Below are positions 1,155-24,223 of a stretch of 25,073 nt of DNA, in pieces. Location of the stretch: positions 1-25,073 of IMG/VR virus record IMGVR_UViG_3300032225_001599; one strand, written 5' to 3'. Made by a program: the position numbers and the translations under genes. Position 1 is the stretch's first letter, and every line of letters starts with the position of its first letter. The stretch comes from a virus. Its lineage: Duplodnaviria; Caudoviricetes. Below the pieces are notes generated by a model. It searched no databases and was not told the DNA's origin. It saw only the letters and a list, made by a program, of their open reading frames with translations.

Positions 1155-1170
1155 TCGAACATTTGTTCGA
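1155..1170. promoter_or_regulatory. LexA operator (actinobacterial SOS box)
   Basis: TCGAAC-ATTT-GTTCGA, exact match to TCGAAC-N4-GTTCGA; immediately followed by TAAAAT (1171-1176). Confidence 0.8.
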
Positions 1171-8192: not shown

Positions 8193-8582
8193 TTAATCTT
8201 TTATTTCAGTAATTTGAACCTGAACACCAGTCCAACCATCAACCGAATAACGCTTATAAGCATGTAAATCAATAACCCTACTGTCATCCACAATAGCCTC
8301 GCCTTTAGTCAAACCATCCAAAACAGCCCTACACAGTTTATCCGTATCGGGTATCACAGTTGGATACATCCTAGAAACAGAAGAAGGCCTTGGAAGATAA
8401 AACCAAAGTTCCACTTCCAAAGCCCCATCCATAGGTTCTTCAAATAAAGACTGACATTCCAATTCAATAGCTTTACGCCAAGCAGGAAGATATTTGCTCG
8501 CTTCAATCATGCGACCATTGCCAACATGGCGTTTAGACCCCTGCGGTGCTGGAACACCAAAAACAGCAAACTTAGTTATCAT
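8193..8582 (-). CDS. rusA: RusA-like Holliday junction resolvase
   Basis: GVPAPQGSK...PDTDKLCRAVLDGL...DDSRV. Confidence 0.92.
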   Translation of the reverse strand: MITKFAVFGVPAPQGSKRHVGNGRMIEASKYLPAWRKAIELECQSLFEEPMDGALEVELWFYLPRPSSVSRMYPTVIPDTDKLCRAVLDGLTKGEAIVDDSRVIDLHAYKRYSVDGWTGVQVQITEIKD

Positions 8583-8730
8583 GCCTTTTATAGTAGTTCA
8601 CACAAAGAACAATAAACCAAACAGCAGCAAAAAAATAAGGTAAAAATGCTTGCTCAACAGATTTACTGTTCATACCTATCCAAATAAATTCAACAACAGT
8701 TGAAAACAAAATTAGATAGGCGAGTTTCAA
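8572..8730 (-). CDS. Small two-TM protein (TTG start; not in ORF track)
   Basis: LKLAYLILFSTVVEFIWIGM...PYFFAAVWFIVLCVNYYKRHDN; overlaps both neighbours. Confidence 0.55.
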   Translation of the reverse strand: MKLAYLILFSTVVEFIWIGMNSKSVEQAFLPYFFAAVWFIVLCVNYYKRHDN

Positions 8731-9029
8731 AATGTATCCCAATTAGTGGTTGCAGGTTGAGAAACAATAGAAACTTCCTTAGCGTTAATAGTGAGTTGTG
8801 CATAAACCACAGGATTACCCGTACCCTGCTCAACAAACTCATTAACATTTGCTGAAGCAGAACCAATAATGTTCACTACCTGCCCAACCTCAACAGGAAT
8901 AGTTGACCAAACTTTATAGTTTTGTTTTCCTTCAGTTCCATCAACCTTTTTAAAAGTATCGAACGCAACAAAAAACTTTGCAAAAGATTTAGTTACAGTC
9001 AGATTTGTTGCTTTAATTGTGTTAGGCAC
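8727..9029 (-). CDS. Putative single-stranded DNA-binding (OB-fold) protein
   Basis: Beta-rich 100 aa ending NWDTF; lies between the initiator and RusA. Confidence 0.55.
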   Translation of the reverse strand: MPNTIKATNLTVTKSFAKFFVAFDTFKKVDGTEGKQNYKVWSTIPVEVGQVVNIIGSASANVNEFVEQGTGNPVVYAQLTINAKEVSIVSQPATTNWDTF

Positions 9030-9032
9030 AAT

Positions 9033-9302
9033 TTACCCTTTCTCTATATGTTTTGGATTTACACAATCAGAATGATTGCATATTCTTACACCTGGTAAAA
9101 CTTCAACCCCACCAGATAAGGGAGTAACTCCATCAGCATCAAAATCGCCTTTATGAGGAACACACTTCAGGCTACCATACTGAACAATTTTTGCAGGTTT
9201 GGCACGACATGAAGCACAAAATAAATCAGTTTGTCCACGCTTATCAGGCGAAACCACCCAACTGTAACCGCATCTATTACAGATAATTTTGTTGTCATCC
9301 AC
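9033..9302 (-). CDS. Zinc-finger hypothetical protein
   Basis: CNRCG, CASC, CNHSDCVNPKH. Confidence 0.8.
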   Translation of the reverse strand: MDDNKIICNRCGYSWVVSPDKRGQTDLFCASCRAKPAKIVQYGSLKCVPHKGDFDADGVTPLSGGVEVLPGVRICNHSDCVNPKHIEKG

Positions 9303-9306
9303 ACCA

Positions 9307-10107
9307 TCAGTTTATTTCCTTCTGACCATTGTGCAACTTACATTCAAAACAGTTATAGATAATTCGTTCATGCACACACAACTTAGGGGCATTTCGTTTC
9401 ACTTCCTCTTCACGCAATTTATCTTCCAAAGCCTGTTTCTTCTGCAACTCCTTCAACTTCAAAGTTTTAGCTTCTTCACTTGCCTTAATTTCAGCAATTA
9501 TCTCTTCCTTAGATTTAGTTCTCTCAGGAAGCAACCCATCACCCCAACGGTCACCATTCAACCAAGTTGTCGGATAAGGGATGAACTCTGCTGGCGGAAG
9601 GTTAGGGTCATGGGCGAAACGGATAGCACCAGCCAAAATTTCGTCATGCGTAGCCCTAGCCAAAGCGGATTCAAATGCTTTCAAAGCAGCTCGTTTAGAT
9701 ACCTTACGAGGATAAACATTCCAAAATTCTTCAAAATGAGCATATAGGTTAATATATGTTTCTTTTAAAGGTTTGTGTGCCACATCTGTCACCCCTGATT
9801 TACCCAGTCTGTCACCCCTGCTTACCTGACCTGTCACCCCTGACAAAATAATCCAATACTTATTTGTCTTGTATTGACCACCAAAATCAGAGCCATTTAC
9901 CTCAACAGTAATCTCCCCAATTTCTTGAAGATACTGCAAATCTCGTTTAATTGACCTTTCAGACGAATTAGCGTACCTAGCTAAAGTAGCGATAGCAGGC
10001 CAAGCACCATTATCGCCATGATGATTTGCTATCCCTATCAAAACAAGTTTTGCACGCCCCTCAGCACGACTATTATTCAAAACAAGGCTTATCATCTCTA
10101 CACTCAT
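9307..10107 (-). CDS. Phage replication initiator (N-terminal winged HTH; lambda O-like organisation)
   Basis: AKLVLIGIANH...AWPAIATLARYANSSERSI; FEEFWNVYPRK...IPYPTTWLNGDRW; internal iterons. Confidence 0.85.
   Translation of the reverse strand: MSVEMISLVLNNSRAEGRAKLVLIGIANHHGDNGAWPAIATLARYANSSERSIKRDLQYLQEIGEITVEVNGSDFGGQYKTNKYWIILSGVTGQVSRGDRLGKSGVTDVAHKPLKETYINLYAHFEEFWNVYPRKVSKRAALKAFESALARATHDEILAGAIRFAHDPNLPPAEFIPYPTTWLNGDRWGDGLLPERTKSKEEIIAEIKASEEAKTLKLKELQKKQALEDKLREEEVKRNAPKLCVHERIIYNCFECKLHNGQKEIN
9786..9842. repeat. Three iterons CTGTCACCCCTG, probable replication origin
   Basis: Copies at 9786, 9809 and 9831 (22-23 bp period) in the initiator linker, next to AT-rich 9748-9770. 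Confidence 0.8.
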
Positions 10108-10159
10108 CAAAAGCCCCCTAGAAGGCATTTAAAGGCGTTTTTGCGTAGGTTTAACATGC

Positions 10160-10489
10160 TTACCCTTCAGACTCTAATAAAGCATCCATAATTTTGTGTG
10201 ATGACAAAGCAACATCATCAGTAGCACCAGCCGCATACCTGCCAGCATTAAAAAACAACTTATCTCTCTGTTCACGCATAGCTTCTAACTGTTCCAGTTC
10301 AGCATCAAAATAAGCCCGAATATGTTTAATCTCAGGTCTAGTCAAATTCTTGCGAATTTCAACCAAATTATTGGCGTTCTCAAGATAAGTCAAATCAAGG
10401 CGTTCCTTCTCCAACGCTAAAAGATAAGCCAACCACTCAGAATCATCTAAAACCTTCTTCAAAACCTGTGAATCATCAAATTTACTCAT
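10160..10489 (-). CDS. Hypothetical helical protein
   Basis: 109-aa ORF in operon. Confidence 0.75.
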   Translation of the reverse strand: MSKFDDSQVLKKVLDDSEWLAYLLALEKERLDLTYLENANNLVEIRKNLTRPEIKHIRAYFDAELEQLEAMREQRDKLFFNAGRYAAGATDDVALSSHKIMDALLESEG

Positions 10490-10495
10490 AAATCC

Positions 10496-10837
10496 CTAAC
10501 CTAAATGCAAACGATATAAAGTTTTATTCCAGTCATTATCAATCAAAAACCAGTCACCATTCATAAAATCATAGACAGGCGTATGCTCAGGAAACTTGAA
10601 TCTCTCCAACTTCCAACCACACATCAAAGCCTTATCCCTAAACTCAGCGTTAGATTCCATAAAAACATTAGATTCACTACACAAAACAATCAAATTAGAA
10701 GGAACATCCAGCAGCTTAGAACCACCCATACCCCGATTAATGCGGTGTTGCGGAACAAGAGTGTCATCAATACGCCCACAATGCCAACAACACTTATCAC
10801 GCTCTAAAACCTTAGCCCAAACAGATTTACTAACCAT
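10496..10837 (-). CDS. HNH-family endonuclease
   Basis: VLERDKCCWHCG...QHRINRGMGGS...NLIVLC..SN. Confidence 0.8.
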   Translation of the reverse strand: MVSKSVWAKVLERDKCCWHCGRIDDTLVPQHRINRGMGGSKLLDVPSNLIVLCSESNVFMESNAEFRDKALMCGWKLERFKFPEHTPVYDFMNGDWFLIDNDWNKTLYRLHLG

Positions 10838-11168
10838 GCCTAAAAGTCAACTCCACCTGTTTAGCAATAACAGCAGTCAAAGTACCAGCATCCGAAATCT
10901 GCTTAATTTTAGCCTTCACACGACTCAACTCAACTTTCGCCATATCATGTTCAAACTTCAACTCAGCGGTCTTTAAACGAGCAACAGCAGTCCTATCAGC
11001 AACCGTACCCTGCGCTTCAAGAAAAGCAGACTGAAAAGCCTTCTCATAAACCAAATCCCTATCAGCAACCTTAATCTCAGCATCATAAAGAGCATTAATA
11101 CCCTTCTCACCAGACTGAATAAGCTCATTCAGTTTGGCAATAACCTGGTCAGGACTAACTATTTCCAA
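10830..11168 (-). CDS. Coiled-coil hypothetical protein of the recombination operon
   Basis: 112-aa helical ORF, GTVADR motif. Confidence 0.75.
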   Translation of the reverse strand: MEIVSPDQVIAKLNELIQSGEKGINALYDAEIKVADRDLVYEKAFQSAFLEAQGTVADRTAVARLKTAELKFEHDMAKVELSRVKAKIKQISDAGTLTAVIAKQVELTFRHG

Positions 11169-11643
11169 GTTCTTTACCCCACATCACAATCTTCTCCAAC
11201 TGTTCTTTAGGCAACTTAGCCTGTTGAGCTTCAACATACAAAGCCTTCAACTTCACTAAATCCTTATTAAAATACGCTTCACTAGACTGAGAATAAATGT
11301 CATCATTAGCACGATTTACTTTATCCATCTCTTGTGCTGAAGGTCGTTTACCTTTAGGGCTGAACTGCCCGCCGAGAGCCGAAATTGCTCTTCCGTAAGA
11401 ACTGGTAGCACAATTTTCGACAAAGGACACCTTGTTCACATTGCTAGTTCCAATACGCTCTTCAGCGAAATCAACTGTCGCAGGTTTCTCATCAGCCTTA
11501 TCTAAATAAACTTCAGCCTTCATAACAACTTGAGTTTCTGTAAGTGAAACAATTTCAAGATTCAAACGACCATTTGGAAAAGCACTCCAAAATAAATCAA
11601 TTCTCTCCTGAACTGTCTGATATTGCGAAAGGTCGAAGCCCAT
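11155..11643 (-). CDS. Putative single-strand annealing protein (partner of YqaJ)
   Basis: YQTVQERI...ENCATSSYGRAI...SAQEM; position after the exonuclease; function inferred. Confidence 0.6.
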   Translation of the reverse strand: MGFDLSQYQTVQERIDLFWSAFPNGRLNLEIVSLTETQVVMKAEVYLDKADEKPATVDFAEERIGTSNVNKVSFVENCATSSYGRAISALGGQFSPKGKRPSAQEMDKVNRANDDIYSQSSEAYFNKDLVKLKALYVEAQQAKLPKEQLEKIVMWGKELGNS

Positions 11644-11828
11644 TATTTTTTCTCCTTCATGTCAACAGTTTTTAACCAGATAATAAGTTCGTTGCGTTCC
11701 TCTTTAGTTAACTCGATAGCAAACCTAGAAAAATAGCCGTAACCACTATGTTTTAACACCGAAATCTCTAACTGTGCATCACCATCACTGCCAAAACCAA
11801 AACCATCAAATTCGTATCTTTTATTCAT
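11643..11828 (-). CDS. Hypothetical protein
   Basis: 61-aa coupled ORF. Confidence 0.65.
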   Translation of the reverse strand: MNKRYEFDGFGFGSDGDAQLEISVLKHSGYGYFSRFAIELTKEERNELIIWLKTVDMKEKK

Positions 11829-11830
11829 TT

Positions 11831-12697
11831 TTAGCCCTTTGTCTTAACTGATAAATAAGGTGTCCCACCATTACGGGAAGAACGAGTAGCAACAACTTTG
11901 CCATTTAAAGAACCATACTTTGCTTTACCCATAAGGTCAAGGATTTGACTCTTTAACTTAGTTACTCTTTCAGAAGTCAAATCAAGGTCAGCTTGAAGAA
12001 ACAACAAACTTGTACCCAATTCACCTAATTCAACTTCTTCTTCCACAATTTCAGGATGCATGACCCTAACAGTTTGAAAAGTGCTTTCAGAGCCATCCCA
12101 ATCAGGTGCAACATCTTTTTGCAACTTAGCCCAAAACTCTTCAACCCTAGCAACCATACGGTCAGCGTAATCAGCGTTATAGTCTAAATGAAAAGTCTCT
12201 AACTGATTACCTTGAAACAAGACAACAACCTTACACCACTTCAACCCAAGAAGATGCATGTACCAAATACATTGAGCTGCATAATGTTCAGGAACATAAT
12301 CCCACCGATAACCAGCAGTTTTAATCTCTAACAAACCATAAGTGTCACCATCAAACAAAATGCCGTCAGGGTTAGCATGTTTCCAACCATCAGCCCAAGT
12401 ACCAGTAGTAAACATTTTGTATTCAGGGTTACGCAAACCCCATTCATCAAAAATGAGTGGTTCAACAATAGTTCCCCAACGCATCTTCTCGTTTTGTTCA
12501 AAAATATCATCAATACGCTTAGTCAACTTAGCCCACAAAGTAAAGGCTGACTCCCAAGGATTTAACCCTAAAATAGTTCCAACCTGTGAACCACCAATAC
12601 CAGAACCCCTAAGTTCATGCCATTCAGCACTTTGATTCTCAAACTCGCCAATCAACTTAGCCGAACCAAATAACCCATGATTTAATTTATTAGACAT
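11831..12697 (-). CDS. YqaJ-like (lambda exonuclease family) recombination exonuclease
   Basis: EWHELRGSGIGGS...HANPDG...LEIKT...YAAQCIWYM. Confidence 0.92.
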   Translation of the reverse strand: MSNKLNHGLFGSAKLIGEFENQSAEWHELRGSGIGGSQVGTILGLNPWESAFTLWAKLTKRIDDIFEQNEKMRWGTIVEPLIFDEWGLRNPEYKMFTTGTWADGWKHANPDGILFDGDTYGLLEIKTAGYRWDYVPEHYAAQCIWYMHLLGLKWCKVVVLFQGNQLETFHLDYNADYADRMVARVEEFWAKLQKDVAPDWDGSESTFQTVRVMHPEIVEEEVELGELGTSLLFLQADLDLTSERVTKLKSQILDLMGKAKYGSLNGKVVATRSSRNGGTPYLSVKTKG

Positions 12698-12711
12698 ACG
12701 CCCCTTTTCTA

Positions 12712-12747
12712 TTTACAACTGACTGAATTATCAGTAAGGTAAGTGTA
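12712..12747 (+). promoter_or_regulatory. SigA-type promoter for a leaderless whiB mRNA
   Basis: TTTACA-N17-TAAGGT-N6-ATG; no Shine-Dalgarno sequence. Confidence 0.65.
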
Positions 12748-12764
12748 TGACAAACCACCGACAA
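12742..12764 (-). promoter_or_regulatory. RecA-NDp (PafBC-dependent) promoter driving the recombination/replication operon
   Basis: TTGTCGGTG-GTTTGTCA-TACACT matches tTGTCRgtg-N8-TAnnnT exactly; -10 lies about 45 bp upstream of the exonuclease ATG. Confidence 0.75.
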
Positions 12765-13061
12765 ACAATACCAATTTCAAGAAAATTGTTTTCGCTATTA
12801 GAAAAAATGGAAGAAGTAGGCGAACTGCCTTGCCAAAACTATCCTGAAAGTTTTTATCCAGAGGGCGGTGAAATTAAAAGGCGAGAAGAAACCCAAATAG
12901 CTAAATCACTATGCCAAACCTGCCCAATAATTGAAGAGTGTAGAATGTATGCTTTAGAAGCTAAAGAAGAATACGGTATTTGGGGTGGATTAGACCCAGA
13001 AGAAAGACGAAACTTTCTAAAATCTATTTCTTCATCTCGGAGTCAACTGAATCGTCTTTAA
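12747..13061 (+). CDS. whiB: WhiB-family Fe-S transcription factor
   Basis: C...AKSLCQTCPIIEECRMYAL...YGIWGGL..EER. Confidence 0.95.
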   Translation: MTNHRQTIPISRKLFSLLEKMEEVGELPCQNYPESFYPEGGEIKRREETQIAKSLCQTCPIIEECRMYALEAKEEYGIWGGLDPEERRNFLKSISSSRSQLNRL

Positions 13062-21927: not shown

Positions 21928-22389
21928 TTACTCCTTGTCTTTACTAAACAATTTTATCCCATTAGCCATACGGGCTTTTAAATCTGTAGTTGAAATGCCT
22001 GAAGTATAGGAAATAAAACATAAAACAATTTCATTTTTATCAAGCCACTCTTCATCAAACTGCATTTGAGAATAATAATCTCGATTAGCCCAATCTGTAC
22101 CTGTAATAACAATATCAGGTTTAGGGTCTTGAAGAATAGTTGGCTTAGAGTCTTGACCGCTAAAATTAACTCGAACTTCATCAACATACTTACAAGCCGA
22201 AACAACAGCAATTCTATCTTCAAGGCTCATTATAGGTTTCACACCTTTAAACTTTTCAACAAATTCGTCTGTATTCAAAGCTACAATAACTTTTCCGTTT
22301 TTACCAGCCATTTGCTTTAGTCTTTTCAAGAGCCTAACATGTCCAGCATGAAACAAATCAAAAGTGCCGCCGTTATAAATTACTCCCAT
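21928..22389 (-). CDS. TagD/RfaE-like cytidylyltransferase (HxGH nucleotidyltransferase)
   Basis: GGTFDLFHAGH...GTDW...YTSGISTT. Confidence 0.9.
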   Translation of the reverse strand: MGVIYNGGTFDLFHAGHVRLLKRLKQMAGKNGKVIVALNTDEFVEKFKGVKPIMSLEDRIAVVSACKYVDEVRVNFSGQDSKPTILQDPKPDIVITGTDWANRDYYSQMQFDEEWLDKNEIVLCFISYTSGISTTDLKARMANGIKLFSKDKE

Positions 22390-23027
22390 GAGTTATCTCG
22401 CCTAATCTGTAGAGACCAGTTACCTTCTGAAAAGTCTTGTTCATTTTGTTTTTTAAAATAAAGTAATTGATTACGGCTAAAAGTAACATTATTTTGATTT
22501 TGAAAACCACTAGACAAAGTAGAACTATTATCGTGAGCCAAACTAGCATCAATAAACTTAGCTTCAAAACCAGCATTAGTTATTCTTCGCTCATAGTCAT
22601 TATCTTCAAAATAGATAGGATGAAAACGCTCATCAAATAAACCAACATCTTTAACAACTTTTTCACCTAAAACAAAACCAGACCAGTAAGGTGCAATGTT
22701 CAAAAAATTGATTGTATTAGGGTCTGCTTCTTGAGCAATCTTTTGTAAAGTACCAGGATTAAGAACACTATCATCATTTAACAAAACCCAATAAGGTGCA
22801 AAAGGGGTGGTCTTTACAATCAAATTTAATCCACCACCATAGCCAAGTCCATGTGGAACTTGAATAAGCCACATTCGTTTCACCAATTCAGGTTTTATAG
22901 GACAATACTCTTGTTTACCAGAATTATCAACAATAACTAAGTTTTCTATTGGGTAGTCAATGCTCGCTAAAAGTCTATCTGCTAGGTCAAAGCGTTTAAG
23001 TGTAAGGAAACCTAAAACTGGTATCAT
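22380..23027 (-). CDS. Glycosyltransferase, GT2 / GT-A fold
   Basis: VIVDN, LLNDD, VGLFDERF..YFEDNDY; start revised to MIPVL. Confidence 0.88.
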   Translation of the reverse strand: MIPVLGFLTLKRFDLADRLLASIDYPIENLVIVDNSGKQEYCPIKPELVKRMWLIQVPHGLGYGGGLNLIVKTTPFAPYWVLLNDDSVLNPGTLQKIAQEADPNTINFLNIAPYWSGFVLGEKVVKDVGLFDERFHPIYFEDNDYERRITNAGFEAKFIDASLAHDNSSTLSSGFQNQNNVTFSRNQLLYFKKQNEQDFSEGNWSLQIRRDNSWE

Positions 23028-24223
23028 GCTAATAGTTTCTTCCATAGAGGTAGCCAAGATTCAGACCATACAGTATCAACATCAAACTGTTTAACAAACT
23101 CTATACTCTTATCCGACTTTTGACCTTTCTTAGCGTAAGCAGCTTCCAAAGCGTTCACAATAGAAGGAATAGAAGGTGTCTGCCACCAAGCATTTTGCCC
23201 TGCATCCCAAGCAGGTTGCCCATCAACAAGGTAAGAATCCTCTGAAACAAGGTCAGGTGTAGCAGCCCAATTAGAACCGACCACAGGTGTACCACAAGAT
23301 TGTGCTTCAATAGTTGGAACGCCAAAACCTTCACCAAAAGAAGGAGTCAACATAACATCCATGACCGTATAGTAAGCAGCAAGTATCTCCTGACTAATAC
23401 CATGACGATAATCACTAATAGAAGGAAAAATTATTTGTTCCTTACGCAAACCTAAAGACTCACACAAAATAAAAAGATTCCATCCACCAGCACCACCAAA
23501 AGGGTCAGTATGTAAATACAATTTAGCATCAGGTCTATTTTGAGCAAAAATACTGAAAGCCATAATGTTTTCAGCAAAAGCCTTACGGTGAATCAAACCA
23601 GAAGCCTTATTAGCTGCGTTCATACCAACAACAAAATCATTATCATCAAGACCCATAAACTTACGGGTATCCATACCATTTATAGTATGAGTTGGTTTCA
23701 TAACTTTAGTATCAACAGCATGAGGGACATACTCACATTCCAAACCGTTTTCTTCCATCTGGCGTTTACCATGCGGAGACATAGCAATAGGAAGCACATT
23801 AGGTTTCTTCAACCAATCTAAAACATTAGGTGGCATAGTTATATGGTCTAAAGGAGTCCAAGAAGCAATCTGTCGAACATTATCAAATGCTTCTCCCTTA
23901 AAAACCCAAACATCATACAAAGTAAATAAAACATCATTCAATTTTGTTTTAGAAAAATGATTTGACTTACCGACATGATGAGCATGATTCATCACAATAA
24001 CATCATTAGAATACGCTTCAAAACCACGAGCATAATGAGGAATCTCACCATAAGGAGTTCTCAAAGTACTATTCATCCCATCAAGACCAAAATTACTTTG
24101 AGCAGCAACATCAACGCCATCACGCTTCAAACGGTCAACAAGATAACCAGACTGAATACCATAACCAGTAGGAAGATACGGGCTATTAGAAACAACAGAA
24201 ACTGCACCCTTTATTTTTCCCAT
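23024..24223 (-). CDS. Glycosyltransferase, GT4 / GT-B fold
   Basis: PTGYG, VPHAVD, PSFGEGFGVPTIEAQSCGTPV. Confidence 0.92.
   Translation of the reverse strand: MGKIKGAVSVVSNSPYLPTGYGIQSGYLVDRLKRDGVDVAAQSNFGLDGMNSTLRTPYGEIPHYARGFEAYSNDVIVMNHAHHVGKSNHFSKTKLNDVLFTLYDVWVFKGEAFDNVRQIASWTPLDHITMPPNVLDWLKKPNVLPIAMSPHGKRQMEENGLECEYVPHAVDTKVMKPTHTINGMDTRKFMGLDDNDFVVGMNAANKASGLIHRKAFAENIMAFSIFAQNRPDAKLYLHTDPFGGAGGWNLFILCESLGLRKEQIIFPSISDYRHGISQEILAAYYTVMDVMLTPSFGEGFGVPTIEAQSCGTPVVGSNWAATPDLVSEDSYLVDGQPAWDAGQNAWWQTPSIPSIVNALEAAYAKKGQKSDKSIEFVKQFDVDTVWSESWLPLWKKLLA

Follow-up and report, generated by a model that had tools for sequence, protein, structure and literature searches.

The window, that is, the whole stretch of DNA analysed here, is a 25-kb phage fragment (25,073 nucleotides) with a GC content of 38%. 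Its sole conserved counter-oriented gene is whiB, the product of which matches PF02467 with an E-value of 2.7e-18 and has four cysteines, a GxWGG turn and an aromatic patch, as expected of a Wbl protein, with the patch positions assigned by eye. Residues C29, C56, C59, C65 and W79 are invariant and F36 is almost invariant. Divergent from whiB is a putative operon, which begins with a YqaJ/RecE-like exonuclease. Exonucleases of this type generate ssDNA. A first-pass annotation of the same DNA read the operon as exonuclease, SSAP, HNH, initiator, SSB and RusA. Here, the exonuclease, HNH, initiator and RusA labels are borne out by Pfam or PHROGs, whereas SSAP and SSB stay leads from Atlas, these two ORFs having no match in Pfam or NCBIfam and no named PHROG. 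Elsewhere in the window, the interval between the capsid and neck genes (21928-24223) encodes a cytidylyltransferase and two glycosyltransferases; Pontimonas phage phiPsal1 shares the latter pair, and the trio possibly serves virion glycosylation.

Table 1. Features of the window, with those of the whiB/exonuclease junction listed first.
Feature	Position	Strand	Remarks
PafBC-type -26 element TTGTCGGTG	12756..12764	-	GTC at 12762-12760; overlaps whiB codons 4-6
Exonuclease -10 TACACT	12742..12747	-	N8 from TTGTCGGTG; first T pairs with A of whiB ATG
Predicted exonuclease-operon start (A)	12735	-	From -10 spacing
whiB -35-like TTTACA	12712..12717	+	17-nt spacer
whiB -10 TAAGGT	12735..12740	+	12-bp bidirectional geometry; 6 nt before ATG at 12747
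SD-like purine-rich stretch ahead of exonuclease ATG	12701..12710	-	Read from sequence; kept in close relatives
5-bp inverted repeat CTGAY-N6-RTCAG	12718..12735	-	Predicted exonuclease mRNA 5' end; in whiB promoter spacer
whiB	12747..13061	+	104 aa; PF02467; four Cys and GIWGG; predicted leaderless
YqaJ/RecE-like exonuclease	11831..12697	-	First gene of operon; PF09588, phrog_434
Downstream operon, five labelled genes	8193..11828	-	Co-transcription suggested by abutting ORFs
Possible SSAP	11155-11643	-	Atlas lead only: dsRBD-like PF27148 at 0.96
HNH	10496-10837	-	PHROGs
Replication initiator	9307-10128	-	PHROGs
Possible SSB	8727-9029	-	Atlas lead only: SSB clusters at 0.91-0.92
RusA	8193-8582	-	PF05866
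Perfect LexA-box-like palindrome	1155..1170	.	Distant non-coding region; accessory, outside junction

The junction between whiB and the exonuclease holds two predicted promoters back to back. On the minus strand, TTGTCGGTG-N8-TACACT spans 12742-12764 and on the plus strand, TTTACA-N17-TAAGGT ends 6 bp before the whiB ATG, both exactly where the first-pass annotation had placed them. The exonuclease-strand promoter has no -35 upstream in the window and the whiB ATG has no SD. With a 6-nt discriminator, starts are predicted at 12735 (minus) and 12747 (plus), and each of these is the first base of the opposite -10, which confirms the earlier claim that each predicted start falls on the other promoter's -10. 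This arrangement is called the interlock below. The PafBC motif had also been assigned to the first codons of whiB, which is correct for its -26 half, whereas the -10 only overlaps the A of the ATG.

The window contains a single perfect match to the strict motif, and none of 200 Markov simulations produced one. The looser TGTCRG-N10-TAnnnT arises in 30.5% of these simulations, so the window by itself is weak evidence and it is the comparison with relatives that carries the case. A sigma-70 scan of the window called neither promoter. A competing minus-strand promoter that had been named earlier, TTGTCA-N17-TAATTC, is rejected as a conserved promoter, its -10 departing from TAnnnT both in the window and in all 17 aligned sequences. 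The inverted repeat CTGAY-N6-RTCAG has arms that are kept in 15 of the 17 close relatives; its folding energy is -4.9 kcal/mol (z -0.8), RNA covariation among close relatives, scored with the outermost pair misplaced, did not rise above shuffles, and it is a candidate hairpin or operator.

Relatives were selected by protein similarity and not by motif. The motif is present in all of the first 23 exonuclease relatives. Wider searches gave 187 sequences including the window, with many contigs present more than once: whiB is divergent from the exonuclease in 159, there is no exonuclease in 24, the two genes share an orientation in two and whiB is missing from two. Loci were dropped if the exonuclease start was truncated or if less than 200 nt lay upstream of it, and the 160 that were kept reduce to 84 distinct regions and, at 80% identity, to 37 clusters, with pairwise identities of 29-77% (median 42%). 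The first-pass annotation had proposed looking for the motif at whiB/exonuclease junctions of related phages, and GTC-N12-TAnnnT is found there, upstream of the exonuclease, in 37/37 clusters, always with the same spacing and strand. The longer form TGTC-N12-TAnnnT is found in 35 clusters, and the remaining two read CGTC and AGTC. By comparison, other spacers give 0-1 clusters, the other strand gives 0-2 and the background rate is 16 of 1664 windows. The -10 is kept as TAnnnT across clusters with variable middle bases. On the whiB strand, the PafBC motif is seen in 2/37 clusters, which is near background.

A further 79 loci from metagenomes form a second set, which partly overlaps the first; its longest contig is 36.5 kb and six loci were dropped. 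Here, the GTC form is present in 71 of the 73 usable loci and in 19/21 new clusters. One miss, L389, has no whiB. In the other, L394, TGTGGG replaces TGTCGG so that the GTC is changed, but the 12-bp interlock and leaderless whiB are retained, making this junction a natural negative control. At whiB loci without a divergent exonuclease, the motif is present in 0/25. When DNA alone was scanned, a WhiB ORF starts at the CAT of the motif in 47 of the 119 matches listed, and most of the remaining matches among those listed look like chance. In two unrelated viral contigs (L255:640-740 and L254:640-760), there are near-symmetric elements with TGTCG...TA motifs on both strands.

The window and its relatives fit the consensus of PafBC-dependent promoters, tGTCgg(N10)tA(N3)T, in which the GTC triplet at -27 to -25 is read by PafB (available text of PMC8635444), the GTC of the phage motif occupying these same positions. 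In addition, the motif is present at 35 of 38 host-family recA promoters, where its base profile is the same as that of the phage motif. Two of the three exceptions are off-spacing in genomes that have two WYL genes and the third is from the one sampled genome of the family with no WYL hit. PafBC probably reads the exonuclease-side motif, as judged by comparison of sequences. A PafBC-type promoter at the head of the exonuclease operon is supported, as a prediction, by the 37/37 clusters, the recA-profile match and the 19/21 new clusters. The motif is the one for which the first-pass annotation used the name RecA-NDp.

The phage promoters are not uniform in their upstream part. On the exonuclease strand, TTG occurs at -36/-35 in 14/37 clusters, versus 0/35 host recA promoters and a background of 5.8%; it is absent in the window. 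Basal, PafBC-independent firing is likely in these 14 clusters, judging from the triplet, and because of this -35-like TTG, PafBC probably boosts rather than gates the exonuclease operon there. Some junctions have further elements of their own. L052, L053 and L060 carry another inverted repeat, GTCTNAC-N10/11-GTNAGAC, which overlaps the exonuclease -10, is operator-like and shows a paired change in L060. Exonuclease leaders of approximately 100 nt are found in L084, L094, L100, L155 and L179, some with strong inverted repeats (compare the L065 group).

A different reader of the GTC element, whether a phage protein or host WhiA acting together with WhiB, or else its retention for the WhiB N-terminus or a whiB SD with a superficial likeness to PafBC sites, is highly improbable. 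The appeal of this idea is that GACAC, from the WhiA motif GACAC(GCC) (PMC10243135 and PMC13473873, each available in part), shares GACA with the reverse strand of the element, that whiB adjoins the element and that GGACA precedes the whiB start in leadered relatives. However, GACAC requires a G at -29, which is present in 2/37 clusters, and a WhiA box at the junction was rejected on this ground. WhiA sites are also variably spaced (PMC10243135), whereas the GTC element is fixed, and the profile of the element equals that of the host recA promoters.

The coding region provides a second way of separating these ideas. An in-frame whiB ATG occupies the -12 position in 20/37 clusters (L084 is out of frame and is excluded from these coupled clusters). 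In 20/20, whiB codon 5 is NGA (CGA 14, GGA 4, AGA 2), specifying Arg or Gly, and codon 6 begins with C, with residues that vary. The element is wholly outside the whiB ORF in nine clusters, the start is shifted in six and no start was found in two; in a midpoint-rooted FastTree phylogeny, the uncoupled clusters are spread over several supported clades. Since changes of residue leave the motif intact and it is also retained outside the ORF, the constraint acts on the DNA, and protein constraint on the WhiB N-terminus is rejected as the cause of the motif. In the leadered loci L140, L148, L149, L183, L385, L386 and L399, whiB seems to use the reverse strand of the -26 element, GGACA, as its SD as well.

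Bidirectional promoters have opposite -10 elements with starts 7-25 bp apart. At the junction, the predicted divergent starts are 12 bp apart in a symmetric -10 configuration, and this spacing is one of the listed bidirectional configurations (Warman et al., bioRxiv 10.1101/2020.01.31.928960, available in part). A reverse TAnnnT one base past the PafBC -10 is found in 26/37 clusters versus 0/35 host recA promoters, with a p of 3e-11 that treats the clusters as independent, which they are not fully. Reverse -10 configurations of 18 and 23 bp, one extra base each, were left out of the evidence. In the second set, the reverse -10 is present in only 6/21 new clusters, so that the interlock is absent in 11/37 and 15/21. 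The -35-like TTTACA/TTTACT is confined to a close clade and the corresponding DNA is T-rich elsewhere. A predicted leaderless whiB with a back-to-back -10, as originally proposed, is supported in the clade of the window. As many clusters have lost the interlock but retain the -26 motif, the PafBC element is, on this comparative evidence, the core of the junction and the interlock is optional.

How the two promoters would influence each other is informed by work in E. coli, where an activator of one side of a bidirectional promoter represses the other via polymerase competition, and where such promoters at basal activity do not compete (PMC12825309, in its available parts). The claim that the promoters are mutually exclusive is weakened: the back-to-back geometry is a known 12-bp type, is often lost and, in E. 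coli, leads to competition only on strong activation. The same facts give some ground to the proposal that PafBC activates the operon while the whiB overlap reflects no more than a compact genome and the usual symmetry of -10 elements, with both genes early and whiB not meaningfully repressed: 12 bp is generic bidirectional spacing, the motif survives many uncouplings and competition requires high activity. But a reverse -10 needs three independent bases, its frequency contrasts with that in host promoters, and it is kept across clades that are approximately 40% identical, at the cost of fixed whiB codons 5-6. This compaction reading is quite unlikely. If PafBC does act at the junction, damping of whiB is quite likely.

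The best annotated match for both WhiB and the capsid is phiPsal1, with which 19 of the 30 tested proteins are shared. This phage is described as lytic, non-integrated and no longer available, and the genes annotated in its host include pafB, pafC and lexA (PMC6106888, in part). In phiPsal1 (MG835450), a cI/Cro HTH gene is in the whiB slot and the motif is not there; this cI/Cro-like gene (L239:18564-18869), counter-oriented and following the holin, is a swap of the regulator module. A related contig falls in the bin of a Microbacteriaceae MAG (G001), which has a tandem WYL pair with RxxxR beside tatAC, an arrangement like pafB-pafC-tatAC. NCBIfam gave the G001 WYL pair no name, and the link between contig and MAG may be a mis-bin. 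WYL genes are present in 40/41 genomes of the family and in 118/121 of the class (a set that includes the unpublished genomes G066, G071 and G078 and, by name, no Nanopelagicales), a WYL match alone not being proof of pafBC. The terms pafB, pafC and WYL are absent from the supplements of PMC12817590. Sequence likeness makes Microbacteriaceae the likely host family, and the phages form a large aquatic family, likely infecting actinobacteria. For this likely host family, the presence of pafBC is supported by the tandem pair of G001, the 40/41 Microbacteriaceae genomes and the annotation of the phiPsal1 host.

Five relatives that are 93-100% complete have no integrase or resolvase (PF00589, PF00239), a search that divergent systems could escape, and no cI-type repressor (HTH_3, PF01381). 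Moreover, no repressor, partition or maintenance family was found among 106 of 208 ORFs (non-core, from three relatives), in agreement with the description of the system as repressor-free. An integrated copy was not seen in a genome scan, where the matches were two short contigs. As the five near-complete relatives have neither integrase nor cI-type repressor, the junction does not serve prophage induction. Most likely, it is a control of timing or gain for a phage that does not integrate, and not a lysis-lysogeny switch. The proposal that host damage is the trigger is weakened by the same finding: with no integrase in the five relatives, triggers other than host damage are possible, and the phage itself could be the source of the ssDNA signal.

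These results also bear on the strict, repressor-free, two-state switch of the first-pass annotation, in which a WhiB-on phage would wait, non-replicating, for damage to the host, such as that caused by UV, to flip the junction through PafBC, LexA providing a second input. Several features are compatible with it, namely the exonuclease side of the window having no -35, each start being on the other's -10, whiB occupying the slot of the phiPsal1 cI/Cro gene, the five relatives having no cI-type HTH, and deferment via host regulators having been proposed for other phages (PMC9437464, available in part). Nevertheless, it is quite unlikely, as integrase, resolvase and maintenance genes were not found in the sets described above, the interlock is often lost, and 14/37 clusters have the -35-like TTG. 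The second input fares no better. The LexA-like box of the window matches host SOS boxes but is 11.5 kb from the junction, is perfect in 1/5 relatives and is deleted in one aligned relative. It had been suggested that through this box both host damage pathways would be tapped, a proposal weakened by the accessory nature of the element.

The region around the box (910-1400) is largely non-coding, follows a terminator-like hairpin and could be an origin or a genome-end region. It also contains the window's only perfect WhiA box, GACACGCC at 1119-1126, and a DnaA-like TTATCAACT at 1138 on the minus strand. GACAC motifs are likewise paired with an SOS box in the host recA regions L225 and L207.

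Taken together, the favoured reading, which we hold with moderate confidence as a prediction from sequence, is that ssDNA-activated host PafBC boosts the replication operon and would thereby damp the predicted leaderless whiB promoter. On entry, SigA polymerase would mostly fire whiB, which has both a -35 and a -10, the exonuclease side in the window having no -35. Next, ssDNA, arising from host damage or from phage DNA processing that may include the phage's own exonuclease, would activate PafBC. According to the available text of PMC11804915, PafBC is activated by 6-12-nt ssDNA and associates with polymerase that has already bound the promoter. By homology, PafB would then recognise the GTC triplet (-27 to -25), redirecting SigA to the exonuclease direction, which could feed forward. 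Finally, both promoters would open the same ~13 bp and, as in E. coli, strong activation would compete whiB down.

In a bolder version, WhiB would be produced first, from its leaderless promoter, and ssDNA arising from sunlight damage or from the phage exonuclease would then cause PafBC to flip the ~13 bp as a self-amplifying, repressor-free clock, with whiB shut off. Since WhiB proteins and PafC both bind SigA region 4, as phage Wbl proteins do (PMC13013590, in part), WhiB may in addition restrain the switch at the protein level, this deferment being released by damage. This version is unlikely.

On the sequence evidence, the junction is real and family-wide, and is a novel combination of known parts. 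If the favoured reading is true, the phage borrows the activator-type, ssDNA-sensing damage pathway of actinobacteria, for which the known precedent is the LexA repressor, and pafBC status or UV would alter infection timing in abundant planktonic actinobacteria. The motif is kept across fresh and marine relatives that are ~40% identical. The junction may also bear on the link between pafBC and mycobacteriophage resistance (as cited in the available text of PMC12848934), and, as a natural fragment of 50 bp, it would suit tests of how an activator drives competition at a bidirectional promoter.

In the titles or abstracts of the literature surveyed, a scope outside which subscription papers fall, no phage PafBC promoter is described. 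The window WhiB is a four-Cys Wbl like those of actinophages, with aromatic residues at the positions reported to serve SigA region 4 binding (PMC8612146, PMC13013590); the available parts of these two papers do not describe the promoter architecture or a promoter analysis of actinophage whiB. With phiPsal1, the window has the virion and lysis modules in common and differs in the whiB slot, as explained above.

Other phages also place sites for a host stress or state regulator on their promoters: LexA is used by GIL01 and CTX, Spo0A by phi29 and CtrA in lytic deferment (available text of PMC9437464). Unlike LexA-type borrowing, PafBC is an ssDNA-sensing activator and not a repressor, the phage may make the signal, and no integrase was found. 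With known PafBC promoters (PMC8635444, PMC11804915, both in part), the junction shares the tGTCgg(N10)tA(N3)T consensus, the invariant GTC, the missing -35 in the window and its place ahead of recombination genes. Unlike them, it is phage-borne and known here from sequence, has its -26 element in the codons of a divergent gene, is paired with a reverse -10 and, in about a third of the phage relatives, adds the -35-like TTG. Divergent starts 12 bp apart are shared with bacterial bidirectional promoters (bioRxiv 10.1101/2020.01.31.928960; PMC12825309), for which the available text reports competition in E. coli only. In contrast to these, the phage junction is conserved across a family, with one side leaderless and the other sigma-adapted.
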